Shown piece after piece: positions 4,246 to 36,973 of a DNA stretch of 64,000 bases; position 1 is the stretch's first letter, and each line of letters begins with the position of its first letter. The position numbers and the translations under genes are program-made. The stretch is from an uncultured Chloroflexia bacterium (GTDB lineage Bacteria > Chloroflexota > Limnocylindria > Limnocylindrales > CSP1-4), in NCBI GenBank assembly GCA_963749705.1, contig CAVVNQ010000008.1:288001-352000 (forward strand), in the 5' to 3' direction. The notes under the pieces are model-generated. The model ran no database searches, was not told where the DNA came from, and saw only the letters and a list, made by a program, of their open reading frames with translations.

Positions 4246-4259
4246 ATGGGTGGGCTGCG

Positions 4260-4709: not shown

Positions 4710-4777
4710 ACCCACCCCTGACCGTGTTTCCGGGCGCTCCGGCGCAGATCGCCGGCAATCGACCGCCGCCAGCCTGG

Positions 4778-5113
4778 TTACATCACGCCGACGACGTGAC
4801 CTTCGGGATCCGCGAACAGCGCGATGGTCGTCTCCGGCGCCACCTCGGTAAGCGGCATGATCACGCGCCCGCCGCCGGCGACCGCCCGATCGAGGATTCC
4901 CTGCGGGTCCTCGCCGTGGACGTAGAACGTGACGTGGCCGGCACCGCCGTCGCTGCTCGCGCCGACGCCGGCTGCGATGTCACCCAGCCGGGCCATCCCG
5001 TACCCGGTCGGGTTGTCGGTGTCGAACGTCCAGCCGAGGACGTCTGAGTAGAACCGCTGGAGCGCGGGACCGTCCTTGCCCACGACCTCGACGTGGATCA
5101 CGTGGTTGCCCAT
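4778..5113 (-). CDS. VOC/glyoxalase family protein
   Basis: HVEV...FYSDVLGW...FADPEGHVVG motifs; AGGAGG RBS upstream. Confidence 0.9.
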   Translation of the reverse strand: MGNHVIHVEVVGKDGPALQRFYSDVLGWTFDTDNPTGYGMARLGDIAAGVGASSDGGAGHVTFYVHGEDPQGILDRAVAGGGRVIMPLTEVAPETTIALFADPEGHVVGVM

Positions 5114-5326
5114 CGGGTTGTGCCTCCTGGCCAATTCGGGGCGGCTCTGGTACCGCTCTCAGGAGGACGACGTACGGCCGCCCACCGAATCGACAGGTCG
5201 TCGAGCTTCGCCGCGACGAGCCCCTGCAAATGGCGCGTCGCTGAGTGGTCGATCCCTGCCCCGGCCGCGTCGGCCCCCGGCGAGAACCTCGTGTCGGTCC
5301 AGCCGTCGCGTGCGACCCTGATACGC

Positions 5327-5713
5327 GTGACTGATCCCGGAGCAACCCCGGAGACACGCGTCGACCGCTGGCTGTGCGCGGTGCGGCTGGTGAAGACCCG
5401 CCCGCTTGCGATGCAGCTGTGCGAGGGCGGTCACGTCCGGATCAATGGAACGCCCGCGAAGCCCTCGACGAGGGTTCGCACCGGCGATCGCGTGGAGGCG
5501 CTCATCGCGGGCCGCGAGCGGATCGTCGAGGTCGTTCGGCCGATCGAGTCGCGCGTTGGAGCTGCCGTCGCCACGCAGTACTACGTGGACCACAGCCCGC
5601 CGCCGATCGTGACCGAGATTCGGCCGGGGATCATGGCTGTCCGGGGCGAAGGCCGGCCGAGCAAGCGTCTTCGGCGCGAGCTCGAGCGCCTGCGCCGGGC
5701 GGGCGACCGCTGA
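5327..5713 (+). CDS. S4-domain RNA-binding protein (Hsp15-like)
   Basis: RVDRWLCAVRLVKTR...GGHVRING...KPS; C-terminal GRPSKRLRR. Confidence 0.88.
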   Translation: MTDPGATPETRVDRWLCAVRLVKTRPLAMQLCEGGHVRINGTPAKPSTRVRTGDRVEALIAGRERIVEVVRPIESRVGAAVATQYYVDHSPPPIVTEIRPGIMAVRGEGRPSKRLRRELERLRRAGDR

Positions 5714-5755
5714 GCCGCGCGCTGGGGCCTGTCCGCGAGTCGGGAGCGCTGGTAC

Positions 5756-7381: not shown

Positions 7382-7383
7382 CG

Positions 7384-8586
7384 TCAGGCCGTCTTTCGCT
7401 CGGGGTTCCAGAGGGGCGGGCGCGCGGTGTGCGCCGCGACGTGGACGTACCGGTGGCTGATCGGGATCTCGAGGTTGACCTTCGATCCCGGCGCCGCGAG
7501 CTCGACCGGCACCCGCACCAGCCCGATGTGCCGCTGGAGCATGGGCGAGTACATGAAGCTCGTCGCGTAGCCGACCTGGGTCCCGTCGTCGTCGTACACG
7601 AACATCTCCTCCTGGACGGGCGTGTGGTCCATGGGCGGGATGAAGCCGGCCTCGTCGTGGAGGCGGTTCCAGTCGCGCCAGTCCACGACAAGCCCGGTCA
7701 GCCGGAACCGCGAGGACTTCTCGGCCAGCTCGCGCCGGATCGCGTTGCGCCCGATGAACACCCGGTCGTCGGTGGTGACGCCCTTGAGCATCCAGCCCAG
7801 CCCCAGCTCGTGCGGGGTGGCCCGGTCCGCGTCCGTCCAGGCCAGGCGGCTGGACGCGAAGTCCACGTCGAGCAGCAGCAGCCCCGCCTCGATCCGGGTC
7901 ATGTACAGCGCCTGGAGCCCGAACGGCAGCACGCCGTGGCCGCGCGAGGCGGCCCACACGGCATCCCAGACCTCGAGCGCGCGGTCCGCCGCGACCCAGA
8001 TCTCGTAGCCCAGGTCCCCGGTGTAGCCGGTGCGCGAGATGGTGACCGGGCGGCCCGCGATCTTGCCGGTGGTGATGCCGAAGAACGGCAGCCCCTCGAC
8101 CGCCGGCACCAGCGTGGCCAGGATCGCCCGGGAGCGCGGGCCCTGGATCGACAGCACCGCGTGCTGGTCCGACACGTCCTCGATCGTCACCTGGTCGCGG
8201 GACCCGACCAGGTCGCGGAAGTAGCCGAGGTTGGGCTCGGCCGAGGTGAGCACGAACTCCTGCGCGCCGTGCCGCAGGAGGACGCCGTCCTCGACGATGA
8301 ACCCGCGGTCATCGCACCAGATCGTGTACTGGGCCTGCCCGGGGGCGAGCACGCGTGGATCGCGCGCCATGACACCCGCCAGGAAGCGCTCCGCGCCCGG
8401 CCCGGAGAACCGGTACTTGAACAGCGGCGAGGTGTCGAACACGCCGGCCGAGTTGCGGACGGCGAAGTACTCGAACTTCTCGGACAGCCCGTACTTCTCG
8501 GCCGCGAGATGGCCGGACCAGTGGCTCCACAGCCCGGTCTCGTTCAGCGCGGACGTACGCTCGTGGAACGGGGTCGTGCGGATCAT
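7384..8586 (-). CDS. aminomethyltransferase (GcvT-like) family protein
   Basis: RTTPFH, EYFAVR..AGVFDTS, QGPRS, SRTGYTGDLGYEIW, RIEAGL. Confidence 0.9.
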   Translation of the reverse strand: MIRTTPFHERTSALNETGLWSHWSGHLAAEKYGLSEKFEYFAVRNSAGVFDTSPLFKYRFSGPGAERFLAGVMARDPRVLAPGQAQYTIWCDDRGFIVEDGVLLRHGAQEFVLTSAEPNLGYFRDLVGSRDQVTIEDVSDQHAVLSIQGPRSRAILATLVPAVEGLPFFGITTGKIAGRPVTISRTGYTGDLGYEIWVAADRALEVWDAVWAASRGHGVLPFGLQALYMTRIEAGLLLLDVDFASSRLAWTDADRATPHELGLGWMLKGVTTDDRVFIGRNAIRRELAEKSSRFRLTGLVVDWRDWNRLHDEAGFIPPMDHTPVQEEMFVYDDDGTQVGYATSFMYSPMLQRHIGLVRVPVELAAPGSKVNLEIPISHRYVHVAAHTARPPLWNPERKTA

Positions 8587-8701
8587 GCGCGGGGCTCTGC
8601 CTCCCTTGGGAACCCGGACGGTAGCCGACGCAGGTCTCCGGAGGCAGGGGCGTTGCTTGGGGTGGGTCAGGTCCGCCGAGATCGGGCCGGATCCGGGGGC
8701 G

Positions 8702-9193
8702 TCAGGCCGTAACGGTCTCGCGCTCGTCCTCGCCCGGCGCCTCGGAGGTGATCCCCCAGCCGCCGAAGATGGCCGTGCCCTCGAGACGCAGCGTCGGCGC
8801 ATCGGCCGGTCGCTCGATGCTCGGGCGCCCGTCACCGGCACCGCCGATCCCGACGATCCGCGTCTCCACGTTCCAGGTCTCGGGCACGATCAGGTTGCCG
8901 CCGCCGAACAGCGCGCTGGAGTGGATCGTGGCGCCGGCCGGGTCCAGGGTGGCATCGCGCAGGTCGAGCGTGCCGCCACCGAACCAGGTCGTGACGGTGC
9001 CGCCCTTGAACGCGCCGGACTCGCTGTGGAACTCGAGCGGACCGAAGGTCGCGACAAGGTCGACCTCATCCGAGGCGGGGTCCTGCGGCACGGCTTCGCG
9101 CCGTCGCGTCGCGGCGTAGATCACGGATCCGATCATGAACACGAACCACGCGAACAGCAGCAGGCTGACCGCCCGCATGAGCTTTCCCAACAT
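8702..9193 (-). CDS. LiaF/DUF2154-like cell-envelope stress membrane protein
   Basis: One TM helix followed by FGGGTLDLRDA, ALFGG..LIVP..WNV, AIFGG repeats. Confidence 0.75.
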   Translation of the reverse strand: MLGKLMRAVSLLLFAWFVFMIGSVIYAATRRREAVPQDPASDEVDLVATFGPLEFHSESGAFKGGTVTTWFGGGTLDLRDATLDPAGATIHSSALFGGGNLIVPETWNVETRIVGIGGAGDGRPSIERPADAPTLRLEGTAIFGGWGITSEAPGEDERETVTA

Positions 9194-22717: not shown

Positions 22718-24094
22718 TCAGGGGTTCGGCGGCGGCAATGCCAGCTCAGGCGTCGAAGCGTCCGGCAGTGGCGTGCTGACCGCTCCCGAGACCGAGTCGC
22801 GTACGCCCCCCGTACCGAAGAAGCCGCCGTCGCCCCCGTCGACCACGATGCACGTTGGGTCGAGGTATGTCAGACCGCCCGGCAGGCGGATGTCACCCTG
22901 GAACTGCACGACCCAGGCTGGACGATCCGACTGAAGCTCCGGGTTCCGTGCACTCAGCCGCGCGTATCGGGGCGCGTCGCTCGCGTGCTCGATCCGACCG
23001 AGGCCCGTGATGGCCGCACTTCCGTAGCGCGAGACGATCTCCGGGACGAGGCAGACCTCGAAGGCCCGGGCTGCGTCGGCCGGCGGGTTTGACAGCGATA
23101 CAGGCGCAACCGTCGGGTCGATGGGCACGCCCTCGGTGGCGCCAGTCGGGTCAGACGCCGGGGTGGCGCTGGCCGACGGCGCCGGCGCAACAGACACGCT
23201 TGGCCCCGCTGACGGGATAGGCGAGCCCAGCGGTACGAAGCCGACGCCCGGCACCATGTGCCCCATCAACGTCGTAAGGTCGTCCGCGTAGACGGGCCGA
23301 GGCGCGTCCTGCGGAGGGTTCGACGGCGTCCCGGGGACGGGGTCGAAGGGCCCGATGAGGTACTGCTTGGGAACGTAGCCGGCGATCGTCACGCCATCGC
23401 GAGCCCAGGCTGAAACAAAGTCGGGCACCAGCGCCCCGTAGGTGGGGCCGCCCTCCGGCGGGCTTGCGTTGGCCGGGATCGGACCCTTGGTCGGCTTGCG
23501 CCAGGCGACCGCCTCGACGGTGAGCGTGGTCTCGCAGTCGCTGCACAGGCTTGGTCCGCTCGACCCTCCGGTGAACGTTTCGACGCGGACGACGGTAAGC
23601 GCGCCGGAGGTCCGGACGAAGCCAGGCGCAACCGTCATGCCGTTCAGCGCGAACTGCGGGCCTGATCCCGCGGCACCGGAGAGCTTCCACCACTCCCCGC
23701 AGGGCGCGCCCGAGGCCACCGTCGCGTCTGGGCAGGGGTCCGAGCCAAGCACGAGCGTCCCACCGGCGAGGAACGTTCCGGACGTCGCGCTCCGCGCTGT
23801 GATCTGGTCGCCGCGAAGGACCGGCTCGCCGCCAATCGAGACGGGAAGCCCATCCGACCCGATCTGGATCGCACCCGGTCCCGCCGATGTCGCGGGGAGG
23901 AGTCGCGGCCCAAAGACGACGGCGGCCACGACTGCGACCACCGCCAGGGCGACGCCGACCGGCAGCCGACGGCCGGACGGCCGCGGTGCCGGGCGCGGGA
24001 GAAACGGGAAATCACGCTCGGCCCGATCCAGCTCGGCGACCAGGTAGTCGCGCAGGCGGGGGTCGACCGACGTGCTGGACGGCAGGTCAGTCAT
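22718..24094 (-). CDS. membrane-anchored protein, putative anti-sigma factor
   Basis: Short cytoplasmic N-terminus (DPRLRDYL), one TM, large extracellular Cys/Pro-rich region; overlaps the ECF sigma stop. Confidence 0.7.
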   Translation of the reverse strand: MTDLPSSTSVDPRLRDYLVAELDRAERDFPFLPRPAPRPSGRRLPVGVALAVVAVVAAVVFGPRLLPATSAGPGAIQIGSDGLPVSIGGEPVLRGDQITARSATSGTFLAGGTLVLGSDPCPDATVASGAPCGEWWKLSGAAGSGPQFALNGMTVAPGFVRTSGALTVVRVETFTGGSSGPSLCSDCETTLTVEAVAWRKPTKGPIPANASPPEGGPTYGALVPDFVSAWARDGVTIAGYVPKQYLIGPFDPVPGTPSNPPQDAPRPVYADDLTTLMGHMVPGVGFVPLGSPIPSAGPSVSVAPAPSASATPASDPTGATEGVPIDPTVAPVSLSNPPADAARAFEVCLVPEIVSRYGSAAITGLGRIEHASDAPRYARLSARNPELQSDRPAWVVQFQGDIRLPGGLTYLDPTCIVVDGGDGGFFGTGGVRDSVSGAVSTPLPDASTPELALPPPNP

Positions 24095-24602
24095 CGTGGA
24101 GGTCCTCTCGTAGCCGGGCGAGGCCCGTCTTCAACTGGCTCTTGATCGTGTTCTCGCTCACGCCCAGCGCCAGGGCGGTCTCCGGCACGGACAGGCCGGC
24201 GAGGTGGTGCAGGGCGATCGCGGCCCGAATTCGTCGCGGCAGCCTGGCCAACCCGTCCCGGACGTCGATCCGCTGGGCGGCATCACTGCCTGCCGTCGGC
24301 ACCTCGCGGACATGACTGTCGAGACTGACGAGCCGACGGAGGCGGCGGACGACGCGGAACGCCTCGCGGGTCTGGACCCGAAGGAGCCACGCCCGGAGGG
24401 CCCGCGGTTCGCGCAGCCCATCGAGATGTCGGAGGGCTATCTCGAATGTCGTCTGGACGAGGTCCTGGGCTTCGTCGTCGTCCAGGGTGATCACTCGCGC
24501 TGCGGCCAATAGCACAGGCCCGTGCGTGTACAGCTCCTCGACCAGGGCGTCTCGGGTGCGCGCCTCCCCTGGGGCCAGTTCGGTCACCTGCGCTGTGTCC
24601 AT
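24087..24602 (-). CDS. ECF (sigma-70 family) RNA polymerase sigma factor
   Basis: EAQDLVQTTF region 2, AWLLRV, LARLP.R.R.AIAL...GLS..ETA..LGVSENTIKS region 4. Confidence 0.92.
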   Translation of the reverse strand: MDTAQVTELAPGEARTRDALVEELYTHGPVLLAAARVITLDDDEAQDLVQTTFEIALRHLDGLREPRALRAWLLRVQTREAFRVVRRLRRLVSLDSHVREVPTAGSDAAQRIDVRDGLARLPRRIRAAIALHHLAGLSVPETALALGVSENTIKSQLKTGLARLREDLHDD

Positions 24603-24794
24603 CCACCCTCTATTCCTGGCTGCTCGATAACCAAGAGGATGCAGCACGACGAACCGGGTGAGAGGCCAGCCCGGAGGCGTAGCCCAAACGGCCGAGACCA
24701 ATGACGCACTACCTTCGCCCCGGAGGCGGGACGCGGCCGCGCGACGCGATGCGCAGGCGACGACGAGGTTGGACGGGGTTAGACGCCAGACCGT

Positions 24795-25978: not shown

Positions 25979-26335
25979 CTACGTCGGTGGCGACGCGGTC
26001 CCGGGCTCGGTCGCGTCGATCGCCGATGCCCGTCGGGGATCCGGCGGCCCGCCTGACGCCCGGTCCTGGCGCCGCCGGAACGACCAGGCGATGGCGATCG
26101 TGATCAGCATGAACGTGAGCGACACGGTGTTGGTGATCATGACCGGACCGTTGCCGATCGAGATCCCATAGGCCAGCCAGAGCACGAACCCCGGCGTCAG
26201 CAGGCCCAGGTAGCCCAGCGAGACATCCCGGCTGGACTGGGTCTGGAACATGCGCCGGATCTGCATCGTGGGCGCCAGCCCCATCACGAGGCCCCAGGCG
26301 GTTGCCGCGACGGCCAGGACGTCCTCGATCGACAT
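25979..26335 (-). CDS. SemiSWEET/PQ-loop family transporter
   Basis: Three TMs; Q...F.T.SSRDVSL, G..LWL.YG, PV..TN. Confidence 0.85.
   Translation of the reverse strand: MSIEDVLAVAATAWGLVMGLAPTMQIRRMFQTQSSRDVSLGYLGLLTPGFVLWLAYGISIGNGPVMITNTVSLTFMLITIAIAWSFRRRQDRASGGPPDPRRASAIDATEPGTASPPT
26055..26124. repeat. 70-bp perfect direct repeat, copy 2 (inside the SemiSWEET CDS)
   Basis: Identical to 22642-22711. Confidence 0.95.
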
Positions 26336-26968: not shown

Positions 26969-27748
26969 ATGCTGCTGGGGATCGACCATCTCGTCATCGC
27001 CGTCCGTGACCCGGACGCGGCCGCCGCCACCATCGAGCACGACCTCGGGCTGTCGTTCACGGGTGGCGGCCGGCACGAACACGCCGGCACGTTCAACCGG
27101 CTCGCCTTCCTGGGCGACAGCTACCTCGAGCTGATCGGCGTGTTCGACCGGTCGCTGGTCCTGGCATCGTCGTCGTTCGCCGTCGGGCGGGCAGCGCTGA
27201 CGGTGCTGGACGATGGCGGCGAAGGGCTGGCGACGTTCGCGCTCGCCGTCGACGACATCGGCGCCGAGGTGGCCCGCCTCCGGTCGACCGGGTCACGGAT
27301 CGGTGGACCGGTCCCGGGTGCGCGCACTCGTACCGACGGCGACATCGTGCGCTGGATCACCGCATTCCCGGCGCTCGGACCGGCGGAGCCACCGTTCCTC
27401 ATCGAGCATGACTACCGCGGCGCCGAGTGGGGCGATGCCGCGTTGGCGGAGCGAGCCGCGTTCCGCCACCCCGTCGGCGGATGCGTCCGGCTCGCCGGGC
27501 TGACGATCCCGGTTGCGGACCCGGCGGTGACTGCGGGCGAATGGGCCTCGACGATCGGGGTGACGTTCGACAACGGCCATCGCGCCGCGATCGGGGCGCA
27601 GGTCATCGAGCTTGGGCGCCAGGACGCCGGATCGCCCGGGTCATCGATCCCGGCCGTCCACCTCGTCGCGGACGCGGACACGCCGTCGATCGAGCTAGGC
27701 GGCTTCGGTGTTCGGTGGCATCGCCACGAGGCGCCGCCCGGGTCCTGA
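26969..27748 (+). CDS. VOC family (glyoxalase-like) protein
   Basis: IDHLVIAV, GGRH...GT.N.L......YLELI, PFLIE. Confidence 0.88.
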   Translation: MLLGIDHLVIAVRDPDAAAATIEHDLGLSFTGGGRHEHAGTFNRLAFLGDSYLELIGVFDRSLVLASSSFAVGRAALTVLDDGGEGLATFALAVDDIGAEVARLRSTGSRIGGPVPGARTRTDGDIVRWITAFPALGPAEPPFLIEHDYRGAEWGDAALAERAAFRHPVGGCVRLAGLTIPVADPAVTAGEWASTIGVTFDNGHRAAIGAQVIELGRQDAGSPGSSIPAVHLVADADTPSIELGGFGVRWHRHEAPPGS

Positions 27749-28456
27749 GCTCGCACCGGCCGCCCGAGCGGCAACTCCCGCATTGCGACGGCTCGCGATC
27801 GAGACCACGATCCGGTACGTGAGCAGGAAGCCCACGATCGCGGTCGATCCGAGGTACAGCCCCTGCGCCCAGCCCGCCCCGCTATCCGTCCCCGACGCGA
27901 TGCCGTGGACCGTCGCGCCCAAGAACGCGAGGAAGGTCAGGTAATGGAGCGTCCGCCAGGCGCGCTGCCCGATGTGGCGGCGGACGTAGAAGCTGGCGGT
28001 GACGATCGCCATCAGGTACAGCGCGACCTGCCCGATCCCGACGGCCAGCGGCGCATGCGGCGAGAGCCCCGGGACGAGGATCTGCGCGAGCGAGAACGGG
28101 ATCGTCCGGTCGAGACCGAGGAGGATGCCGTGGATCCCGGCCAGCCCGAGCCCGATCGCCGCCAGGTCCTGGTGGAGCGAGAAGCTGATCGGGCGGTGCG
28201 CGATCGCGTCGAGCAGCTTCGTGGACAGCAGCAGCCCGTACACCACCGAGCCGGTGGTCGCGAGGTAGGCGAGGAACCCGAACAGCCGCTCGAACAGCCA
28301 CGGCAGGCTCGCGGCGTTGGTCTCGACGACGGTCGCGATGCCCCGAACGGCACCCGGACCGGTGGCTCCGGCGACGATCCCCACGGCGACCGCGGCCAGG
28401 CCCCACCGGGCGAGCGCCGTACGCGGGTCGAGCCCGCGATACCTCACGCCAGCCAT
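27695..28456 (-). CDS. ferric reductase-like transmembrane (heme b) protein without FAD/NAD domain
   Basis: Hx13H and Hx12H heme-ligand pairs, WRTLHYL, HGI.SGTD. Confidence 0.88.
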   Translation of the reverse strand: MAGVRYRGLDPRTALARWGLAAVAVGIVAGATGPGAVRGIATVVETNAASLPWLFERLFGFLAYLATTGSVVYGLLLSTKLLDAIAHRPISFSLHQDLAAIGLGLAGIHGILLGLDRTIPFSLAQILVPGLSPHAPLAVGIGQVALYLMAIVTASFYVRRHIGQRAWRTLHYLTFLAFLGATVHGIASGTDSGAGWAQGLYLGSTAIVGFLLTYRIVVSIASRRNAGVAARAAGASSGPGRRLVAMPPNTEAA

Positions 28457-29394
28457 CGGACCATCCCCGGGGTCGCGCGAAGGTCGCCGTCGTCGGTCAG
28501 CAGGAGCAGGCCACGGACGCCCGGATGATCGAGCGCGGCGAACGCACCGGCGCTGCCGCGGATCACCGCGACCTTGGCCCAGGCCTCGGCCTCGCGCGCG
28601 GTGGCAGCGAGCACCGTGGCCTGGACGACATCGGTGTCGGCGGGGCGAAGCACGCGCGGATCGATCAGGTGGTGCGAGGGCCGGCCGCCGTGCATCCAGC
28701 GGTGGACGCTCGTGCCCGAGGTCGCGACACCCATCTCGACCGGCGCGTCACCGTCCGCTCGCAGGTCGAGGACCGCCAGCGTGTGACCCGGCATCCGCGG
28801 GTCAGCGATGCCGACCGGCCAGTGATCGCCGGGCGCGACGCGCACGGCGATGTCGCCGTCGCCGTCGACCATCGCGGAACGGGTCGATGCGAGCCCGAGG
28901 GCACGATCGGCGAGCCAGCCCTTGGCGACGCCATCGAGGTCGAACCGGACGCCCGGCTCGCGGCGGACGACGGCGCCTCGTGCACGCCGGTCGAGCGACC
29001 AGCGATGCGACGCCGGGACCGGCCGGCCGCCGGCGAGGTGCTCCGGCTCGCGGCCGGACTCGGCCGCCAGCCGCGCATCGAGCAGCGACGCGTCGACCAG
29101 CCCGTCGGTCAGGCCCTCTGCTCGGCGCGCCCAGTCGAGGACGGCGGTCAGCGTCGGGCCGATGGGGACCCGGGACCCGGGCGCATCGTTGAGGCGGCTC
29201 AGCTCGGAGGTCATCGTGAACCGGGTCAGGCGATCCGCCCACGCGGCCAGGCGGTCGAGGATGCGGTCCGCGGCAGCCGCCAGCCGAGCGGGGTCGCCGC
29301 GGTCGATGAGGTGGACCGAGACCCGACCGCCCATCATCGATGCCGCAGACGAGACGGGCTCGATCGTGGCCGGCACGGTGGCAACGGCGCTCAT
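28444..29394 (-). CDS. apbE: FAD:protein FMN transferase (ApbE family)
   Basis: MGG, RF...SELSRLN, DLDGVAKGW.AD, GDI, ATSG, HHLIDPR, ATV.A. Confidence 0.92.
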   Translation of the reverse strand: MSAVATVPATIEPVSSAASMMGGRVSVHLIDRGDPARLAAAADRILDRLAAWADRLTRFTMTSELSRLNDAPGSRVPIGPTLTAVLDWARRAEGLTDGLVDASLLDARLAAESGREPEHLAGGRPVPASHRWSLDRRARGAVVRREPGVRFDLDGVAKGWLADRALGLASTRSAMVDGDGDIAVRVAPGDHWPVGIADPRMPGHTLAVLDLRADGDAPVEMGVATSGTSVHRWMHGGRPSHHLIDPRVLRPADTDVVQATVLAATAREAEAWAKVAVIRGSAGAFAALDHPGVRGLLLLTDDGDLRATPGMVRWLA

Positions 29395-29765
29395 CGCACG
29401 GTTCCCGACTGGCGGGTCGTGGTCACGACCTTGACCCGCGGGGTCGGCGTCGGCGGGACCACGACCGATGCCTGCGGCGGTGCCGTCTGGCCCGGCTTGA
29501 GCATGACCACGCGCGTGACGTGGATCACGGACGGACCGGGCGTGGTCGCGTCGGTCAGGGCCGCGATGTCGGCGACGGTCGCCGGGGCCGGCGTGACGGA
29601 CGGGAGCATGGCGCTGGCGATCGCCGATGCCGAGGCGATCCCCGCCAGCCCGACGAGGAGCCGCAGCGGGTTGGCGTCGGGCTTCGCGCGCACCGGTCGC
29701 TCGCCGGGGACGGCCCGGGGTGGCCGGGCGGCGGGCATGGGCCGAGGCGTCGGCAGCTCGGGCAT
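29391..29765 (-). CDS. small membrane-anchored P/T-rich protein ending TTTRQSGTVR
   Basis: Coupled to apbE by an ATGA overlap; one hydrophobic segment. Confidence 0.7.
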   Translation of the reverse strand: MPELPTPRPMPAARPPRAVPGERPVRAKPDANPLRLLVGLAGIASASAIASAMLPSVTPAPATVADIAALTDATTPGPSVIHVTRVVMLKPGQTAPPQASVVVPPTPTPRVKVVTTTRQSGTVR

Positions 29766-30052
29766 CAGTCGTCGCCCCCGCGCTCGTGCTCTCCGTCGTC
29801 GTCGCCCCGGCGCGAGGCGGTCGCCGGCTGGGTGACCGTGACCTCCTGCGGCGCCACGGGGGGCGCGACGTAGACCAGGTCGACCTGGAAGGTCGGCCCG
29901 GGGGCGGGGATGTCGGCCGTTGCGGCGGCCGGGACGACGGGCTCGGCGGCGGCCGGACCGGCGCCGGGCGTAACGCCCGCGACCACGAGGCCGACCGCAA
30001 GGGTCAGCGCGGCGACGAGCGAGCCGGCAAAGAGCGCAACTCGATGGATCAT
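29765..30052 (-). CDS. small exported protein with acidic/His tail
   Basis: GGAGG RBS, N-terminal TM, ends DDDGEHERGGDD; TGATG overlap with the next gene. Confidence 0.7.
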   Translation of the reverse strand: MIHRVALFAGSLVAALTLAVGLVVAGVTPGAGPAAAEPVVPAAATADIPAPGPTFQVDLVYVAPPVAPQEVTVTQPATASRRGDDDGEHERGGDD

Positions 30053-30119
30053 GGCGTGAGGACCTCCGGGAGGTGGCGGTGACGTGCTGCGAGCATCGCC
30101 GCACAGGGCGCACCGAGCC

Positions 30120-30138
30120 GTGAGGTCCGGATGAGAAT
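30120..30138 (-). promoter_or_regulatory. putative OmpR-family binding site
   Basis: ttCTCAt-ccgg-acCTCAc, 11-bp period, 23 bp before a GATGCT -10-like hexamer. Confidence 0.55.
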
Positions 30139-30198
30139 GCCCACAGACAAGGCGTCCGGCCCTCGACCAACCACCGGATCGCCCGCACAATGCCGGCC

Positions 30199-30873
30199 AT
30201 GCGAGTCCTGGTGGTCGAAGACGAGCCCAAGATGGCGGCCCTCATCAAGCGGGTCCTCGTGGCCGAGCGCCACGTGGTGGACGTCGCGCCCGACGGGGTC
30301 GGCGCGATGGCGCTCGCCGAGACCGGGCCGCACGACGTCGTGATCCTCGACCGGATGCTCCCGGACATCGACGGGTTCACCGTGCTCCGGCTGCTGCGTG
30401 CCAAGGGGATCGAGACGCCCGTGCTCATGCTCACCGCGCTGGGGTCGGTGGACGACCGGGTGGCGGGCCTCGACGCCGGCGCCGACGACTACCTCGCCAA
30501 GCCGTTCGCGTTCTCGGAGCTGCTCGCCCGGATCCGCGCTCTCGCGCGCCGGCCCGCAGCCCCGGCCGACGCCCGCCTGGCCGCCGGCGACCTCGCCCTG
30601 GACGAGCTCCGGCACGTCGCGCTGGTGGGCGACCGGACGGTCGACCTGTCGGCCCGCGAGTTCGCGCTGCTGGGGTTCTTCATCCGCCACGCCGGCCAGG
30701 TCGTGACGCGCCAGCAGATCCTCGACCAGGTCTGGGGCGCGGAGCCGGACGTGTACTCCAACGTCGTCGACCTGTACGTGTCGTACCTGCGCAAGAAGCT
30801 GGGCGAGCTCGATCGCGCCGACCGGCTGCGAACCGTGCGCGGCGTCGGCTACACGCTGCGGGCGGCGGACTGA
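30199..30873 (+). CDS. OmpR-family response regulator
   Basis: VEDE, LDRMLP, LTA, GADDYLAKPF, winged helix with TVRGVGY. Confidence 0.95.
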   Translation: MRVLVVEDEPKMAALIKRVLVAERHVVDVAPDGVGAMALAETGPHDVVILDRMLPDIDGFTVLRLLRAKGIETPVLMLTALGSVDDRVAGLDAGADDYLAKPFAFSELLARIRALARRPAAPADARLAAGDLALDELRHVALVGDRTVDLSAREFALLGFFIRHAGQVVTRQQILDQVWGAEPDVYSNVVDLYVSYLRKKLGELDRADRLRTVRGVGYTLRAAD

Positions 30874-30878
30874 CCGGG

Positions 30879-32183
30879 GTGGCGATCAGCCCCACCGATC
30901 GGCTGCTGCGCGCCACGCGCCGCCGGCTGTTCGTCGTCACCCTGACGCTGCTCACGCTGCTGGTGGTGGGGGTCGGGGCGGCGACGGCCGTGATGGGCCT
31001 CAACGCGCTCGACGCGGACGTGGACCGGGCGCTCCAGGCGACCGTCGACGCGACCGTGGCCACGCTGTCCGGCGAGCTGCCGTCGAGCGATGAGGGCGGT
31101 GAGCCCGACGAGCAGCAGCCCGCCGCGGCGGACACCGTCCTGCTGGTCCTCGACCCGAACGGCGCGGTCGTCCAGAACCGCACGGGCAGCGCGGTCCCGG
31201 GTCTCCCCGATGCCGACGTCCTGCCCGCGGCGAGGACCGCGGGGCAGGACCTGCGGACGATCCGCGCGGGCGGCCACAGCCTGCGGCTGTTGACGGTGCC
31301 GCTGACGCACGACGGCGCGCTGGTCGGGTTCGTCCAGGGCGGGTTCATCCTCGACCTCCACGACAGCCAGTCGGACAGCCTCGTGCTCGCGGTGATCACG
31401 GTGGGCGCGATGGGCCTCGTCGCCGCGGCATTGATCACGCTCCTGGTCACCGGGCGGGCCCTGGTCCCGATCCGGGACGGCTTCGAGGCCCAGCGGCGGT
31501 TCGTCGCCGACGCCTCGCACGAGCTGCGGACCCCGGCCGCCCTGATCCGGGCCAACGCGGAGGTGCTCGAGCGCGAGCGCCTGGTGGCGGCGGACGGGGC
31601 CCCGCTCCTGTCCGACGTCATCGCCGAGGCCGATCGCCTGGGCGGCCTGGTCGGCGAGCTGCTCCAGCTGGCCGCCTGGGACGAGACGCGCACCACGCTG
31701 TCGCCCGTCTCACTGGATCTCGCGGCGCTGGCGGCCGAGGTCGTCCGTGGCGCGAGCGCGCTGGCCGCGGAGCGCGGCGTCCGGCTCGAGCTCGAGGCTC
31801 CCCGACCGGTGGCCGCGACCGCCGACCGGGGACGGCTCGTCCAGCTGCTGCTGATCCTGATCGACAACGCCATCGATCATTCGCCGGCCGATCACGTCGT
31901 CGGGGTCCGGGTCACGGGCGACGGCCGCAGCGCGGCCATCGAGGTGATGGACGACGGCCCAGGCATCCCCCAAGCCGAGCTGGAGCGGATCTTCGAGCCG
32001 TTCAAGCGCCTCACGGGCACGACGCGGCACGGCTCCGGCGGCACGGGCCTGGGGCTCGCGATCGCTCGCCGGATCGTGGCGGCACACGGCGGGTCGATCC
32101 GAGCAGAGTCACCTCCCGGTGGTGGCGCCCGGTTCACCGTGGTGCTGCCGGCTGAGGGATCTCACAAGGTCCCCACAGGCTGA
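30879..32183 (+). CDS. sensor histidine kinase
   Basis: Two TMs, ASHELRTP H-box, N, DDGPG, F and GTGLGL boxes. Confidence 0.95.
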   Translation: MAISPTDRLLRATRRRLFVVTLTLLTLLVVGVGAATAVMGLNALDADVDRALQATVDATVATLSGELPSSDEGGEPDEQQPAAADTVLLVLDPNGAVVQNRTGSAVPGLPDADVLPAARTAGQDLRTIRAGGHSLRLLTVPLTHDGALVGFVQGGFILDLHDSQSDSLVLAVITVGAMGLVAAALITLLVTGRALVPIRDGFEAQRRFVADASHELRTPAALIRANAEVLERERLVAADGAPLLSDVIAEADRLGGLVGELLQLAAWDETRTTLSPVSLDLAALAAEVVRGASALAAERGVRLELEAPRPVAATADRGRLVQLLLILIDNAIDHSPADHVVGVRVTGDGRSAAIEVMDDGPGIPQAELERIFEPFKRLTGTTRHGSGGTGLGLAIARRIVAAHGGSIRAESPPGGGARFTVVLPAEGSHKVPTG

Positions 32184-32188
32184 TCACA
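32160..32188 (+). promoter_or_regulatory. putative OmpR-family binding site upstream of ferredoxin
   Basis: ctcaca / cccaca / atcaca at 32161, 32172 and 32183 (11-bp period); GACGCT at 32200. Confidence 0.5.
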
Positions 32189-32248
32189 CGACCATCGACG
32201 ACGCTCGCCGCGGTGACCCGCCAGGGTCCCGTCTCGAGGAGATCCGTC

Positions 32249-32539
32249 ATGGCCTTCGTCATCGCCGCTCCGTGCGTCGACCATTCCGACCAGGCATGCG
32301 TGGACGTGTGCCCCGTCGACTGCATCTGGGGGGACCTGGCCGTCGACCGCAAGATGTACATCGATCCCGAGGGCTGCATCGACTGCGGCTCGTGCGAGAC
32401 CGCGTGTCCCAACGGCGCGATCATGGCCGCGAACCGGTTGCCGGCCGACCTGGCCGACTTCGCCTGGGTCGATGCGACCTGGTTCTCGGATCCGGCCGCG
32501 GCACGCTCCGTCGTCGACGAGCTCGTGCCGGCGGCGTGA
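32249..32539 (+). CDS. ferredoxin (7Fe/FdxA type)
   Basis: C..CVDVCPVDC and CIDCGSCETACP; GAGGAG RBS. Confidence 0.92.
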   Translation: MAFVIAAPCVDHSDQACVDVCPVDCIWGDLAVDRKMYIDPEGCIDCGSCETACPNGAIMAANRLPADLADFAWVDATWFSDPAAARSVVDELVPAA

Positions 32540-32540
32540 C

Positions 32541-33341
32541 ATGGTGGTCGAGACCGTGCGTCGCCTGCCGCCACCGCGGGGCGCCGCGGCGGACCCCGTC
32601 ACCCCCAACGCCACGCTGGTCGAGCGCGACGACCTGACGGGTTCGATCGTTCGGCTGCGGCTGCGACCGGACGACGGGGTGCCCGCGTTCCGGCCCGGCC
32701 AGTACCTGGCGCTCGGGTTGCCGACCGACGGGCGCCTCGTCCAGCGACCGTATTCGACGGCATCGGCCGCCGGCGAGTCCGATGCCCTCGAGTTCCTGGT
32801 CCGGCTCGTGTCCGGCGGGATGCTGACCCCGCGGCTGTGGCAGCTGGCCTCCGGCGCCAGGGCCCACGTCGGACGCCCGAAGGGTCGGTTCGTGCCGGAT
32901 GCGGCCGATCCCCGGCGTCCGCTGTACATCGCCACGGGCACCGGAATCGCACCCCTGATGGCCATGCTCGAGACCCGGCTGCGAGAACGGTTCGACGAGC
33001 CGTCCCGGCTGCCGATCGTCATCCACGGCGTGGCGCGGACGGATGAGCTTGCCTATCGCGACCGGCTTGCCGCCCTGGCCGCCGGGCGCCGGATCGCGTA
33101 CCTGCCGGTGATCTCGAGGCCGGCCGAACCCGTCAACGCGGGCTGGCGCGGCGCGACCGGGCGGATCGACGCGCGGCTCCCGCAGGTGCTCGCGGCGGCT
33201 GCGACCGACCCCCATGCGTCGATCGCGTACGTGTGCGGCAACCCCGGCATGGTCGACGCGGTCCGCGACGTCCTGGGTGCCGCGAGCTTCCCCGCCGAGG
33301 CGGTCCGGTTCGAGGCGTACTGGACGACCCGGGCAGCCTGA
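32541..33341 (+). CDS. ferredoxin-NAD(P) reductase-like FAD oxidoreductase
   Basis: F.PGQY, RPYS, G.LT..L, ATGTGIAP, YVCG.PGM, FEAYW. Confidence 0.9.
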   Translation: MVVETVRRLPPPRGAAADPVTPNATLVERDDLTGSIVRLRLRPDDGVPAFRPGQYLALGLPTDGRLVQRPYSTASAAGESDALEFLVRLVSGGMLTPRLWQLASGARAHVGRPKGRFVPDAADPRRPLYIATGTGIAPLMAMLETRLRERFDEPSRLPIVIHGVARTDELAYRDRLAALAAGRRIAYLPVISRPAEPVNAGWRGATGRIDARLPQVLAAAATDPHASIAYVCGNPGMVDAVRDVLGAASFPAEAVRFEAYWTTRAA

Positions 33342-33360: not shown

Positions 33361-34707
33361 TCAGGCGGCGCCCTCGGCCCGCTCCAGGATCGGGGCGGGT
33401 GCGTCGAACAGCTGCGGGAATCGGGCCGCCAACGCGCCAACGGTGGTCAGGAGCACCAGCGCGCCGGATCCGACGAACATGGCCGTGGCGTTGACGTCGA
33501 CGAGCGCGCCGGCCAGCCCGATCGAAAGCGGGGTGATCCCGAACGACATCAGCATCGCGAGGGCCATGACGCGCCCGACCATGCCCGGATCGACCCGGGC
33601 CTGCAGCCAGGAGATGGCGATGATGTTGGTGTACCCGATCGCGACGCCCATCACGGCCAGCATCACGATCACCCCCGGCAACCAGTACAGGACCCCGACG
33701 ACGGCCATCGCGCTGCCGGACACGGCAAGCCCGGCCAGGATGACGCGACCCTGGTGGTCCAGCCGGACGCTGCCCGCGGCCAGGATCCCGATCAGGGCAC
33801 CCGCCGCCCACCCGGCCTCCATCAACCCGAGCCCGGTCGGCCCGGCGGCAAACCGCTGGCTTGCCAGCCAGGGCGCACCGACCGCGCCGGGACCGCTGAA
33901 TGCGAGGTTGAGCACGAACGAGATCAGCATCGTGGTCCGGATGGCGGGATCGGCAGCGACATAGCGCAGCCCGCCGATGAGGGCGGCCCGAAACGACGCG
34001 GGCGGCTCGGACACCGCCGTGGTGGACGCCGCACCGTCTTCGGCTGCCGCGGCGGCGGCGTCGTCCGCGGTCGGGACGGCGGGTCCTGCCGTGGCGGCGC
34101 GGGCGGCGGTCGAGATGAGGGCGACGACCACGGCCGCCACCGCGAACGACACGGCATCGACGGCGAACGCCGCGCTGGTGCCGGCGATCGCGATCAGGAC
34201 GCCGGCGGCGGGTGGCCCGACGATCGCGGACAGCTGGAGCGTGCCCTGGAGCAGGGCGTTCGCCGACGGCAATCGCTCCGGCCCGACCGTTCGCGGCAGG
34301 AACGCCTGCTGCGCCGGCATGTACAGCGCGTCCGCGGCGCCGAACAGGACGCCGAGCACGGCGAGCGCGGGGATCGACGCGGCGCCGACCGCCGCGAGCA
34401 CGGCGATCACGCCCACGATCCCGCCGCGGGCGAGATGCGCCGTCAGCATCAGGCCGCGCGCGGGGCGACGATCGGCGAGCACGCCGAGGGGCACGATGAG
34501 CAGCGCCCGGGGCACCCCGACCGCGATGAGCACGGTGCCCAGCGCGAGGCCTGACCCGGTGAGCGAGATCACCAGCCAGGACAGTGCGATCAGGTGGAAC
34601 TGGTCCCCGACCACGGACACCGCCTCGCTGGCCCACAGCAGGCGGAAGTCCCGGACGGCGAGCGCGTGGAGGACCGGCATCCGGCGCGCGGCGGCGATGA
34701 CGCTCAT
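33361..34707 (-). CDS. MFS transporter (DHA3-like)
   Basis: RDFRLLW, G.LADR, about 12 hydrophobic helices, GRVMA. Confidence 0.9.
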   Translation of the reverse strand: MSVIAAARRMPVLHALAVRDFRLLWASEAVSVVGDQFHLIALSWLVISLTGSGLALGTVLIAVGVPRALLIVPLGVLADRRPARGLMLTAHLARGGIVGVIAVLAAVGAASIPALAVLGVLFGAADALYMPAQQAFLPRTVGPERLPSANALLQGTLQLSAIVGPPAAGVLIAIAGTSAAFAVDAVSFAVAAVVVALISTAARAATAGPAVPTADDAAAAAAEDGAASTTAVSEPPASFRAALIGGLRYVAADPAIRTTMLISFVLNLAFSGPGAVGAPWLASQRFAAGPTGLGLMEAGWAAGALIGILAAGSVRLDHQGRVILAGLAVSGSAMAVVGVLYWLPGVIVMLAVMGVAIGYTNIIAISWLQARVDPGMVGRVMALAMLMSFGITPLSIGLAGALVDVNATAMFVGSGALVLLTTVGALAARFPQLFDAPAPILERAEGAA

Positions 34708-35114
34708 TCGAGCACGATCCGCACGCTGTCGCCGTCATCGTCGACCTCGATGACGGGGCCCCGGGCGCCGGAGCCGAGGGCGTGACGGACGCGGGCGACC
34801 TGGTCGCCCGACAGGCCCGGGACGCGATCCAGGGCAAAGCGCCCGACCGCGATCGGCAGCCGCAGGTTGACGACCGACCGGCCGCGCTCGCGGACCTCGA
34901 TCCGGAGCGTGGTGGCGCCCGCCGTGCCAGCCGGCGACGCATCGGCGCGCGACCCGGGCGGTGGGTTGGGCCCGAACCCGCCGGGCGGCTCCGATGCCCC
35001 CGGGCGCGGCGTGCGGTCGGCCTCGAGGGCGGTCAGGATCGGGCCCGCCTCGTCAGCCGTGAGACGGCCTTCGGCGACCAGGCGCAGCACCTGCTCCAGC
35101 GCATCGGCATCCAT
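34704..35114 (-). CDS. SHOCT-like domain protein (YvlB-like)
   Basis: VLRLVAEGRLTADEA..IL.AL, then LRIEV...VNLRLP. Confidence 0.75.
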   Translation of the reverse strand: MDADALEQVLRLVAEGRLTADEAGPILTALEADRTPRPGASEPPGGFGPNPPPGSRADASPAGTAGATTLRIEVRERGRSVVNLRLPIAVGRFALDRVPGLSGDQVARVRHALGSGARGPVIEVDDDGDSVRIVLE

Positions 35115-36265
35115 CAGAACGATCCCTCGTCATGGCGCGGTCCGGCGTCCTCGAGCGCTGCGAGCCGGCTGGACGCCGTCTCGATGTCGAGGTCACCGCG
35201 CTCCAGCGCCCGCAGGATGTCGAGCCGGGCCGCCTCTCGGCGATCCGCCTCGGCCGCCGATCCGGACGGCGAGTCGGGCGCCGGCGGGCGCGCGCCGGCG
35301 CGGACCAGGTTGGGTGCCGCGGTCGCTTCCGCGACGACCACGCCCCGGTCCGGCGGGGGGCCCGGGTCCGGCGGCGGGCCCGGGTCCGGCGGCGTGCCGG
35401 GGTCCGGCGGCGTGCCGGGGTCGGCCGGGGCTGCGGGCGCACCGGCACGCGCGGGTTCGGGCGCCGGCTCCGGTGCCGTGGGACCTTCGCGCAACCGGAC
35501 GTCGCCCGACATCGTGCGCACGCTGACGCGCACGTGCCCGTCGCCGACGATGAGCGTCCGCCGGCCACGACCCCCTTCCGCGCGGTGCTTGACCGTGGAC
35601 CGGACGTCGCCGGTCAGCGTCTGGGCCTCGAGGCGCACCTCGCTGCCGGTCGCCAGCTGGACGTCGCCACTGACCGCGTTGACGCGGTGCTCGAACCCGC
35701 CCGCCAGCGCGCCCACGACGTCCACGTCACCGCTCGTCGTCGACACGCGAAGCCCGAGCAGCTCGGGTGCCCGGATGCGGACGTCTCCAGACACCGATAC
35801 CACCGAGACCTCGATCCTGGCCGCGCTGTCGACGGTGATGTCGCCGGACATCGATTCCGCGGCCACGGCGCCGCCCTCGATCCGGAGCCGGACGTCGCCC
35901 GACGCGGAAGCCCATTGGCTGGCGCCCTCGATCCCGGCGGCATCGACATCGCCGCTCAGCGTCCGGACGTTCACGCGCGCCGTTCGTGGGACCTCGATGT
36001 CCAGGTCCGCCGTACGACGGGTGGAGACGCGCAGCGGCCCCAGCTGGAAGTCGGCGCCGGCATCCCTGATCCGGATGCCATCGGTGTTCTGCTCGATGAC
36101 GACGTGGTCGTCGACGGCCTCGCCGCCGCGGGTGCGGACGACGACGCGCGGCGCGTCCGCGCCCCGCAGGCGCAGCTCGTTCGAGGTGAGCGTGATCTCG
36201 ACCGCGCCGCCCGGTGCCAGCGGCACCTCGCGGATCGCGCGGTCGGTACCGGTCGTCTCGGTCAC
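35114..36265 (-). CDS. DUF4097 (toastrack) beta-repeat protein with C-terminal SHOCT-like helix
   Basis: Repeated xSGDV units; RLDILRALERGDLDIETA..RL. Confidence 0.85.
   Translation of the reverse strand: MTETTGTDRAIREVPLAPGGAVEITLTSNELRLRGADAPRVVVRTRGGEAVDDHVVIEQNTDGIRIRDAGADFQLGPLRVSTRRTADLDIEVPRTARVNVRTLSGDVDAAGIEGASQWASASGDVRLRIEGGAVAAESMSGDITVDSAARIEVSVVSVSGDVRIRAPELLGLRVSTTSGDVDVVGALAGGFEHRVNAVSGDVQLATGSEVRLEAQTLTGDVRSTVKHRAEGGRGRRTLIVGDGHVRVSVRTMSGDVRLREGPTAPEPAPEPARAGAPAAPADPGTPPDPGTPPDPGPPPDPGPPPDRGVVVAEATAAPNLVRAGARPPAPDSPSGSAAEADRREAARLDILRALERGDLDIETASSRLAALEDAGPRHDEGSF
35347..35424. repeat. 18-bp tandem repeat (PPDPG[T/P]), about 4.5 copies
   Basis: ggtccggcgg at 35347, 35365, 35383 and 35401. 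Confidence 0.85.
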
Positions 36266-36690
36266 GATCCCGTCCCTCCGAGCGCCCGGATCGCCGCTGC
36301 GGCTTCCTCGGCGCTCATCTCGTGGCGCGACAGGCGCTCGAGGATCTCGCGCCGTCCGACCGCGGGGTCATCCCCCTCGGGCGCGGCGCCGTCCGTGGCC
36401 GGCGCGGGATCGGCCTCGTCGCGCGGCCCGAAGCCGAGCGCCCTGACGAGCGCCTCGACGCGGGCCCGCACGGTCGGGTAGCTGATGCTCAGCTCGCGCT
36501 CCATGTCCCGCAGGTTGCCGCGGCTGCGGAGGAAGCTCTCCAGGAGCGATGTCTGCTCGCGGTTCAGGTGGCCGAACCGGCCGACGCCGAACTCCCCCTC
36601 GATCGTGGTGCCGCATTCGCCGCAGCGAAGGCGGGTGACGCTCAGCTCGTGCGAGCAGACGGGACAGGTGGCGATGACGTCGTGTGCCAT
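36262..36690 (-). CDS. DUF2089 family Zn-ribbon/HTH regulator with SHOCT-like tail
   Basis: CPVC...L.C.EC.T.IEG.F, F...RGNLRDMERELSISYPTVR.R. Confidence 0.92.
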   Translation of the reverse strand: MAHDVIATCPVCSHELSVTRLRCGECGTTIEGEFGVGRFGHLNREQTSLLESFLRSRGNLRDMERELSISYPTVRARVEALVRALGFGPRDEADPAPATDGAAPEGDDPAVGRREILERLSRHEMSAEEAAAAIRALGGTGS

Positions 36691-36769
36691 GGTTGGTCGC
36701 GGCCTCGTTGCTGGGTTCGATGCAGGCTTGCGGGTTGGCTGGTGATCCGGCTGCTGGTCGGCGCGCCCG

Positions 36770-36973
36770 TCAGGCGAGCCGGCTCCAGCGTCCCTGCGAC
36801 CAGGTGCCGTCACCGGCGATCCGGTCGATGGGCCGGGAGTAGAGCTCCGGACCGGCCATCGAGGGCGCCTCGCCGTCCGGCGACGCCGTCGACGCCGGCG
36901 CCAGGATCCAGGTCGCGAGCCGCCCGAGCAGGCCGGTGCGGCGCTGCGCCTGGAGATTGATGGTCGTCGTCAT
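36770..36973 (-). CDS. small hypothetical protein (67 aa)
   Basis: First ORF after the sigma70-type promoter; GGAGGG further upstream. Confidence 0.5.
   Translation of the reverse strand: MTTTINLQAQRRTGLLGRLATWILAPASTASPDGEAPSMAGPELYSRPIDRIAGDGTWSQGRWSRLA

Follow-up and report, generated by a model that had tools for sequence, protein, structure and literature searches.

The 64,000-nucleotide (nt) stretch analysed here, called the window, is part of contig CAVVNQ010000008.1 (positions 288,001 to 352,000) from an uncultured Chloroflexia bacterium (GCA_963749705.1; class Limnocylindria, hereafter the class). Around an apbE gene it holds a locus that is, in our judgement, rather likely to encode a split MsrQ-like trans-membrane electron conduit, in which a flavin would be carried on Ser120 of the domain-less C-terminal tail of a small anchored protein, sp1. 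Four translationally coupled genes on the minus strand encode a second small protein (sp2), sp1, ApbE and a ferric-reductase-like membrane protein (FRD protein), with ATGA overlaps at the sp2/sp1 and sp1/apbE junctions and a 13-nt overlap between apbE and the FRD gene. A response regulator, a sensor kinase, a ferredoxin and a stand-alone FNR-type reductase are encoded divergently from them. This arrangement had been described in an earlier note made from the DNA letters alone, and both the operon and the divergent genes, each with a match to its family profile, were found to be present (Table 1). The note had also pointed out that sp1 and sp2 lack the [S/T]GA[S/T] motif at which ApbE attaches flavin mononucleotide (FMN), and the motif is absent from both proteins.

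The sp1 protein is held by an N-terminal hydrophobic anchor. Its N-terminus is variable and rich in Arg and Pro; further on come a conserved RPDxNPLR motif, a helix rich in Gly, Ala and Ser, the motif HVTRYVxLxPGQTAPP and the tail KVVTTTRQSGTVR. There were 138 homologues in 90% clusters, and 208 cluster representatives matched at E<=1e-3 among 1.84 billion; none is annotated, and the family occurs almost only in the class. T117, Q119, S120 and G121 are invariant in an alignment of 38 sequences (A2) with a mean column identity of only 32%. Conservation of the tail among apbE neighbours, a check named before the analysis was made, was found throughout: all 120 listed homologues end in T.{0,1}QSG followed by 0-5 residues, and 78 of 79 genome loci encode the tail. 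One of these 78 (L084) reads ASG instead (TTASG), and the sole exception (L085) is unreadable in frame. Among 147 further cluster representatives, 94 end in T[RKQH]QSG, 31 in TTQSG and 9 in close variants; the remaining 13 comprise fragments, read-throughs caused by frameshifts, and tails that nearly match, among them TKQSA and RTRTSG. The Pro/Thr-rich spacer between PGQTAPP and the tail, measurable in 163 of 267 sequences, varies from 19 to 115 residues (median 21). This fits the flexible tether that the earlier note had imagined, as does the position of the tail outside the confident interface of the complex model described below.

The second small protein, sp2, is also single-pass, and its N-terminal hydrophobic anchor is followed by the conserved strand motif VQVDxVYV and by an acidic tail of Gly/Asp/Glu/His type, GDDDGEHERGGDD. 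In its 19 homologues M1, R4, D58 and Y61 are invariant and the tail is acidic, its composition being kept but not its sequence; such a tail might bind metal, as the earlier note had proposed. By BLAST sp2 was found in 40 of the 79 loci, while an open reading frame (ORF) scan, which asked for an anchor, a [VI]Y[VL] strand motif and an acidic tail, detected such an ORF 5' of sp1 in 68 of 79, by a criterion set after the data were seen. Neither small protein matched a Pfam or NCBIfam model; the profile search of the Protein Data Bank (PDB) gave a best E of 0.58, which is not meaningful, and the ESM Atlas held unnamed Chloroflexota clusters only, with no named match. Aligned with each other by hhalign to see whether sp1 and sp2 are paralogues, the two families gave a probability of 36.6% (E 3.7e-4). 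Two public protein clusters, P0169 (613 amino acids, aa) and P0204 (464 aa), span sp2, sp1, apbE and FRD and contain Arg-rich stretches that are out of frame. They look like read-throughs of the operon and not like true fusions; they probably stem from frameshifted assemblies, and annotation of the sp1 family could be led astray by them.

The source genome assembly is 88% complete and contains three ApbE genes. A canonical ApbE substrate elsewhere in this genome could have explained the enzyme without sp1, as the earlier note had foreseen, but none was found in the assembly: FMN_bind (PF04205) gave no match at E<=1, DUF2271, DUF3570 and Flavodoxin_4 were likewise at zero, and for NqrB/RnfD nothing scored above the cut-off. 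The one FMN_red gene lies about 178 kb from the nearest apbE on the same contig. All three ApbE genes are instead found in similar modules, each with an anchored small protein with an S/T-G tail, apbE and an FRD gene. One paralogous module (L006, contig C3:257391-260070; locus 6287-9069) encodes an FRD protein of 32.9 bits, an sp2-like coiled-coil anchored protein ending in GGEHDDD and an sp1-like protein ending in TTTGASGVP, followed by apbE. The other (L005, contig C8:250195-254020, 34 kb before the window start; locus 4195-9020) encodes an anchored Ser/Thr-rich protein ending in HVSTGGS, apbE, an FRD protein of 31.1 bits, a NuoF-like protein (PF01512, PF10589) and a response regulator. The L006 module adjoins a metal ABC-transporter-like binding protein and permease.

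Proteins of the L006 type, here type B, were found in 29 of 151 sampled class genomes, at 30 loci, and apbE lies downstream in 23 of these. In 19 of the 30 the protein ends in [ST]GASG with 0-3 further residues, so that the canonical [S/T]GA[S/T] stands at the extreme C-terminus; nine have variant tails (including TTRASGG, TSASGKP, TAASGG, TTGSGKPC, TTASGKPC and TGGSAVP) and two are unreadable. The variants bridge TGASG to the TTRQSG of the window and to the TTASG of L084, and in the shared T-x-x-S-G alignment Ser120 of sp1 stands at the position where ApbE is known to attach flavin. The earlier note's proposal that TTTRQSG is a non-canonical flavinylation site is therefore strengthened by the conserved tail, by the lack of a canonical substrate in the assembly and by a paralogue with TGAS at the same place, while flavinylation itself is still a prediction. 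The motif on its own is not diagnostic, since a genome-wide scan for T[TS]x?[AQG]SG tails found 10 matches among the 11,481 open frames of the source genome. Two of these matches are the genes linked to apbE. The rest seem to be artefacts of alternative reading frames, and the one that was checked (C3:119910-120812) is antisense to a metallophosphoesterase gene.

Alternatively, sp1 and sp2 could be no more than structural or assembly subunits of the FRD cytochrome, with the tail as a docking or sorting motif, and ApbE could act on Thr32 of the FRD protein (G-A-T, at the outer end of the first helix) or on an unlinked, missing protein. In favour of this are the non-canonical tail motif and the incomplete genome; moreover, G30 and T32 of the FRD protein are at least 90% conserved, and NqrB and RnfD provide a precedent as flavinylated membrane subunits (PMC8238504). 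However, the G-x-T can have A, I, G or L in the middle, and the motif is missing in the two paralogous FRD proteins, whose modules keep apbE and a tailed small protein. Type-B tails hold the canonical TGAS, and tailed ORFs occur 5' of apbE far above background in the survey below. We consider this explanation unlikely.

The ApbE of the window scores 130.6 bits against PF02424 (cut-off 25.6) and matches ApbE/FmnB structures in the PDB at E of about 1e-11, with its FDLxGxxKGW, TSG and HHLIDP motifs aligned (including 4xdt and 7esa). It thus combines a profile match over threshold with the FAD/Mg and Ser/His motifs that define the family (FAD, flavin adenine dinucleotide), and the three motifs are conserved in 74 orthologues. 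A Glu is found at a position where the aligned solved enzymes carry Asp. This substitution, together with the Treponema ApbE homologue Ftp, which is described to hydrolyse FAD (PMC4436053, PMC4767422), could suggest that the protein is an FAD pyrophosphatase, a flavin-trafficking protein or a chaperone, the small proteins binding flavin or heme non-covalently or not at all. Such a role is very unlikely in our view, given that the FAD-binding, Ser and His motifs are kept in all 74 orthologues, that a cytoplasmic pyrophosphatase would have no evident role here and that the coupling of each of the three apbE genes to its own tailed gene would be left unexplained. The ApbE N-terminus begins only 20 residues before the domain. 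The earlier note saw no obvious signal peptide in this enzyme, and the same holds for the orthologues: no hydrophobic N-terminal segment was found in ApbE or any of the 74 aligned sequences, where the maximum 15-residue Kyte-Doolittle mean is 1.66, compared with 2.08 for the sp1 anchor and 2.54 for the sp2 anchor.

The FRD protein scores 18.4 bits against PF01794, under the Pfam cut-off of 28, while the paralogous FRD proteins, which can be aligned with it (alignment A3), score 31.1 and 32.9 bits. Its two pairs of histidines, His95/109 and His171/184, are invariant, with spacings of 14 and 13. By profile it matches the membrane domain of the Streptococcus pneumoniae NADPH oxidase (NOX) SpNOX (8qt6) at E 2e-4. 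An AF2 model (pLDDT 89.7) compared by VIA had NOX and STEAP proteins as its best matches in structure, with Z 14.0 to SpNOX (root-mean-square deviation 3.4 over 154 residues) and Z 13.4 to STEAP1 (6y9b). The 253-aa protein contains neither PF00970 nor PF00175, both of which are in the separate FNR gene, so the fused dehydrogenase of the NOX type is not found in it. The description of this protein in the earlier note, a heme-b ferric-reductase membrane protein without the FAD/NAD domain, agrees with the invariant His pairs, the SpNOX match and the missing domain; the Pfam score falls short of it.

Linkage of these genes was scored by tblastn at 1e-5 in the 79 sp1 loci of public genomes, several of which end at contig ends. 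ApbE was linked in 77 loci, the response regulator in 75, FRD in 74, the kinase in 73, the ferredoxin in 59, the FNR in 51 and a major facilitator superfamily (MFS) transporter in 19. In four loci (L055, L060, L062, L077) the ferredoxin, FNR, regulator and kinase genes are colinear 3' of the FRD gene on the same strand; as the order is altered and the genes are nevertheless together, the unit persists through rearrangement. The idea that FNR and ferredoxin supply electrons in trans, already put forward in the earlier note, is supported by this linkage, which is retained where gene order differs.

A complex of FRD 1-228, sp2, sp1 25-124 and two hemes was modelled. The best of three controls had an ipSAE of 0.01, whereas that of the complex was 0.78 (0.71, 0.80 and 0.78 in three runs); 116 of 157 solved complexes and 2 of 215 mismatched pairs attained this score, a calibration that is rough only, with our own alignments and a ligand present. 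Contact agreement between runs was at least 76% and partner pLDDT at least 66. In the model, sp1 helix 37-59 packs on FRD 18-65, 87-98 and 190-197 and runs in the same direction as the first FRD helix. The interface includes sp1 29-35, with the conserved PDxNP motif, and FRD 87 and 89-90 of the conserved AHRP loop. Residues 79-116 of sp1 pair with sp2 53-77, whereas sp1 117-124 are outside the confident interface. Residues 49 and 52 of sp1 contact the outer FRD loop 196-197, and the N-terminus of the first FRD helix is Arg-rich and expected to be cytoplasmic. Taken at face value, the model would put the sp1 tail on the outer face, near the loop after the outer-heme ligand His184. Because the sp1 anchor is preceded by an Arg-rich segment and the sp2 anchor by a very short basic one, the C-terminus of each protein is expected to lie outside; the positive-inside rule and the complex model both predict a tail outside the cell.

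A flavinylated tail could also be cytoplasmic, with the tethered FMN linking FNR, ferredoxin or NuoF to the inner heme in place of the NOX-type FAD domain. This would suit the lack of signal peptides in 74 ApbE orthologues and the lack of an FAD/NAD domain in the FRD protein; cytosolic ApbE enzymes are described in PMC12052999, and some apbE-linked tailed proteins of the class have no membrane helix (TSASGH; L158, L160, L162). Nevertheless, we regard it as quite improbable, because the basic N-sides of sp1 and sp2 predict C-termini outside, the model has the sp1 helix parallel to an FRD helix with a cytoplasmic N-terminus and in touch with the outer FRD loop, and the variable-length Pro/Thr-rich spacers resemble extracellular stalks.

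In the split conduit with an external tail that we infer, the cognate ApbE would probably attach FMN through an ester bond to Ser120 of the invariant T-x-Q-S-G tail, with no FMN_bind domain involved. Electrons could pass from NAD(P)H to the stand-alone FNR and the 7Fe ferredoxin, from there to the inner heme b (His95/His171) and the outer heme b (His109/His184) of the FRD protein, and then to FMN on the sp1 tail and an external acceptor, possibly a metal ion. The membrane helix of sp1 would tether it to the FRD protein and its short ectodomain would pair with that of sp2, placing the acidic sp2 tail nearby, and the two-component system would control the unit.

The occurrence of similar tails in the phylum was surveyed in the 900 nt upstream of 80 apbE genes, 40 from the class (L125-L164) and 40 from other classes of the phylum (L165-L204). 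The loci were the best by E-value; the source genome, the type-B rows already seen and genomes flagged as unpublished were left out. A candidate ORF with an S/T-x-x-S-type tail ends just before apbE in 23 of 40 class loci and 23 of 40 loci from other classes, for example …VVRTGAS, …TTRAS, …AHATTGGS, …GHSGSGVS, …AVTRSS and …RTSGS. The same pattern ends 228 of 12,992 open frames of the source genome, a background of 1.75% per ORF. The commonest tail type in the class is [ST]GGS-COOH, as in L005. Seven of the 80 apbE genes, all from other classes, encode a twin-arginine translocation (Tat) or lipoprotein signal, and a tailed upstream ORF was found with none of them, compared with 46 of the 73 signal-less ones. 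The tailed proteins are a candidate new class of ApbE substrate that seems to be widespread in Chloroflexota. Overall, ApbE was found in 99 and FMN_bind in 45 of 151 class-sample genomes, and ApbE in 72 of 121 phylum-sample genomes; these tallies include genomes flagged as unpublished (G067 and G106 in the class, G185 in the phylum), and nothing else here depends on them.

Other ORF types were seen upstream of apbE in the survey. Three class loci (L158, L160, L162) have small ORFs without a membrane helix, ending in …TSASGH, directly 5' of apbE, and these proteins may be cytoplasmic tail-tagged substrates. Further recurrent types were seen at L155, L159 and L161 and at L138, L143 and L146, one of them ending in …T[HR]VS; another ends in …LELQLLLTHA and is, at a guess, YceI-like. 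In other Chloroflexota classes (L165-L167, L170, L171) apbE encodes a twin-arginine signal (…RRDFIRISAVGAG…), and the preceding ORF has HYLCPVGATMD and no tail.

Several points weigh against an external flavin on the sp1 tail. Every step from gene to flavin is inferred. The sp1 tail, T-R-Q-S-G, does not have the canonical D-x-x-[S/T]-G-A-[S/T] form: it departs from it at both middle positions (Gly to Arg/Lys/Thr and Ala to Gln) and has no Asp. According to the review PMC12052999, Asp-to-Ala has a minor effect, but the milder changes Gly-to-Ala and Ala-to-Val already cut flavinylation of a model substrate to about half. The genome is 88% complete, and a canonical substrate could sit in the missing part. 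The complex score is the model's own confidence and the sp1 tail itself is not placed by it. For the FRD protein, VIA Z values of 13-14 are near the chance range of helical bundles, and Foldseek finds STEAP and NOX but weakly (E 0.014 to 0.4, with no match at E<=0.001). The survey tail pattern was set after tails had been seen, and related genomes are not independent samples, so no test statistic is given for the survey. Finally, there is no signal peptide on ApbE or its 74 orthologues while the sp1 tail is placed outside, so that enzyme and site seem to be on opposite sides of the membrane.

This last mismatch is not peculiar to the locus, as canonical modules in the same class also have a signal-less ApbE, together with a fused FRD-FAD-NAD protein and an anchored FMN_bind protein in which DTISGATYTSEG lies roughly 20 residues short of the end. 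A C-terminal tail is the last segment to leave the cytoplasm and could be flavinylated just before export, and the Sec channel tolerates adducts of flavin size. We tentatively suggest, as a speculation we would sooner doubt than adopt, that across Chloroflexota cytoplasmic signal-less ApbE enzymes modify the tails of anchored stalk proteins just before passage through the translocon, and that T-x-Q-S-G, TGASG and [ST]GGS-COOH are versions of one natural flavin tag. The outcome would be tethered extracellular flavin shuttles that require neither a flavin-binding domain nor an FAD exporter. A programmed -1 frameshift that fuses sp1 to ApbE and so puts the enzyme outside was considered and rejected, as no slippery heptamer was seen at the junction and a stop codon always follows within 0-5 residues of the tail.

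If a natural domain-less flavin tag is confirmed, it would explain part of the genomes with orphan apbE genes and widen the recognised ApbE motif. Engineers would gain naturally evolved pairs of tag and enzyme, three of them in the source genome, which could be orthogonal. The locus would also represent a minimal design for electron export, a leashed flavin over a two-heme wire, and the signal-less enzyme with its external site raises the question of whether a flavinylated chain can be exported. A literature search, with most subscription journals outside it, turned up no account of a natural C-terminal tail that is flavinylated without a domain, and none of the sp1 family.

Table 1. Features of the locus, with positions counted from the first letter of the window
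Feature	Position	Strand	Remarks
sp2	30052..29765	-	95 aa; single-pass; GGAGG 10 nt 5' of ATG
sp1	29765..29391	-	124 aa; single-pass; proposed ApbE substrate
apbE	29394..28444	-	316 aa; PF02424; ATGA start/stop overlap with sp1
FRD/MsrQ-like membrane protein gene	28456..27695	-	253 aa; six helices, two predicted heme-b sites
sp2 acidic tail GDDDGEHERGGDD	29768..29806	-	residues 83-95
sp1 tail T115-T-T-R-Q-S120-G121	29403..29423	-	Ser120 is the predicted FMN acceptor
Divergent intergenic (promoter) region, sp2 to response regulator	30053..30189	.	position only
OmpR-family response regulator	30190..30873	+	PF00072 and PF00486
Sensor histidine kinase	30879..32183	+	HisKA and HATPase_c
7Fe FdxA-type ferredoxin	32249..32539	+	ORF opens 32213, probable start 32249; Fer4 families
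Stand-alone FNR-type NAD(P)H:flavin reductase	32541..33341	+	ORF opens 32472; PF00970 and PF00175

The G+C content of the window is 72%, and the names borne by homologues and related contigs point to Chloroflexota, class Limnocylindria. The FNR most likely starts at 32541, one base past the ferredoxin stop codon, and the ferredoxin scores 89.9 bits against NF045480 (FdxA_Actino) over residues 13-96, under the cut-off of 125. The intergenic region between the divergent genes (30053..30189) contains no inverted repeat; a 10-nt direct repeat occurs there twice, no more than expected by chance. Metatranscriptome contigs from one sediment run (X1), with 92-99% identity, tile positions 27602-30038, and one 448-nt contig bridges sp1 and apbE. 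As the run was selected using the same stretch, its records are contigs, DNA carry-over is possible and the uncovered parts are uninformative, this is at most a weak hint that the locus is transcribed in a relative.

Convergent with the FNR gene, an MFS transporter of the EntS/MFS_3 type (33361-34707, minus strand) is kept in 19 of the 79 related loci, and this neighbour may be a hint of siderophore or metal traffic. Beyond it, at 34704-36813 (minus strand), three genes encode a DUF2089 zinc-ribbon/helix-turn-helix protein, a DUF4097 ('toastrack') protein whose tail is Pro-rich, and a small SHOCT-like protein. On the other side of the locus and on the same strand, an extracytoplasmic function sigma factor gene is followed by one for a 458-aa Pro-rich one-helix protein without a Pfam match (22718-24701), in the layout of a sigma/anti-sigma pair, and a 104-aa MtN3/SemiSWEET-like membrane protein (PF03083, 29.3 bits) is encoded at 25979-26293.

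Among the closest known systems are the MsrQ-like clusters, which normally contain apbE and an FMN_bind gene, in a study that leaves orphan-apbE genomes still unexplained; a combination with NuoF-like proteins is reported for 31 of them (Meheust et al. 2021, PMC8238504). Like the window, these clusters have apbE beside a two-heme membrane protein of the PF01794 type, together with a cytosolic module for NAD(P)H (FNR here, NuoF-like in L005) and a presumed role in electron export. The MsrQ-like kind was assigned here through ApbE and the FRD protein, which is counted as the PF01794-type six-helix two-heme component despite its 18.4 bits; the window has no FMN_bind gene, and the proposed carrier is the domain-less tail of a 124-aa anchored protein. 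Relative to the canonical modules of the class, sp1 takes the place of the FMN_bind protein. The FAD/NAD module of the window is a separate gene, accompanied by a ferredoxin. In contrast to the clusters in PMC8238504, where those lacking a signal were left out, the ApbE of the window has no hydrophobic N-terminus; sp1 and sp2 have N-terminal hydrophobic anchors. The host is a member of Chloroflexota, whereas for the MsrQ-like clusters described in that study it is an Actinobacterium.

The FRD protein shares the six-helix fold and the two His pairs spaced 14 and 13 with NOX, STEAP and SpNOX, but has no fused FAD/NADPH dehydrogenase domain, and in the model its first helix binds sp1. In Listeria, also a monoderm bacterium, PplA is a membrane-anchored, ApbE-flavinylated extracellular carrier, as is proposed here for sp1. 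However, according to PMC9973259 there are two FMN_bind domains in PplA, FmnB is secreted as a lipoprotein and an ECF (energy-coupling factor) transporter exports FAD, and none of these was seen at the window locus.

In the sources consulted, every ApbE substrate described is a folded domain, namely FMN_bind, NqrB/RnfD, DUF2271, DUF3570, Flavodoxin_4, FMN_red and the fumarate/urocanate reductases. In the flavinylated FMN reductases (Huang et al. 2024, PMC11334425) the modified Ser is in a C-terminal extension, as is predicted for sp1, but the extension folds back on an FMN-binding FMN_red domain, while sp1 has no recognisable flavin-binding domain. According to PMC12052999, seven residues suffice for ApbE and tags work best at a protein terminus, which makes a tail substrate mechanistically plausible. 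A further likeness is the engineered flavin-tag (Tong et al. 2021, cited in PMC12052999), for which a short unstructured terminal peptide is likewise enough for ApbE and works best at the N- or C-terminus; that tag is artificial and of the form D-x-x-[S/T]-G-A-[S/T], whereas the sp1 tail is natural and reads T-x-Q-S-G, with TGASG and [ST]GGS in its paralogues.

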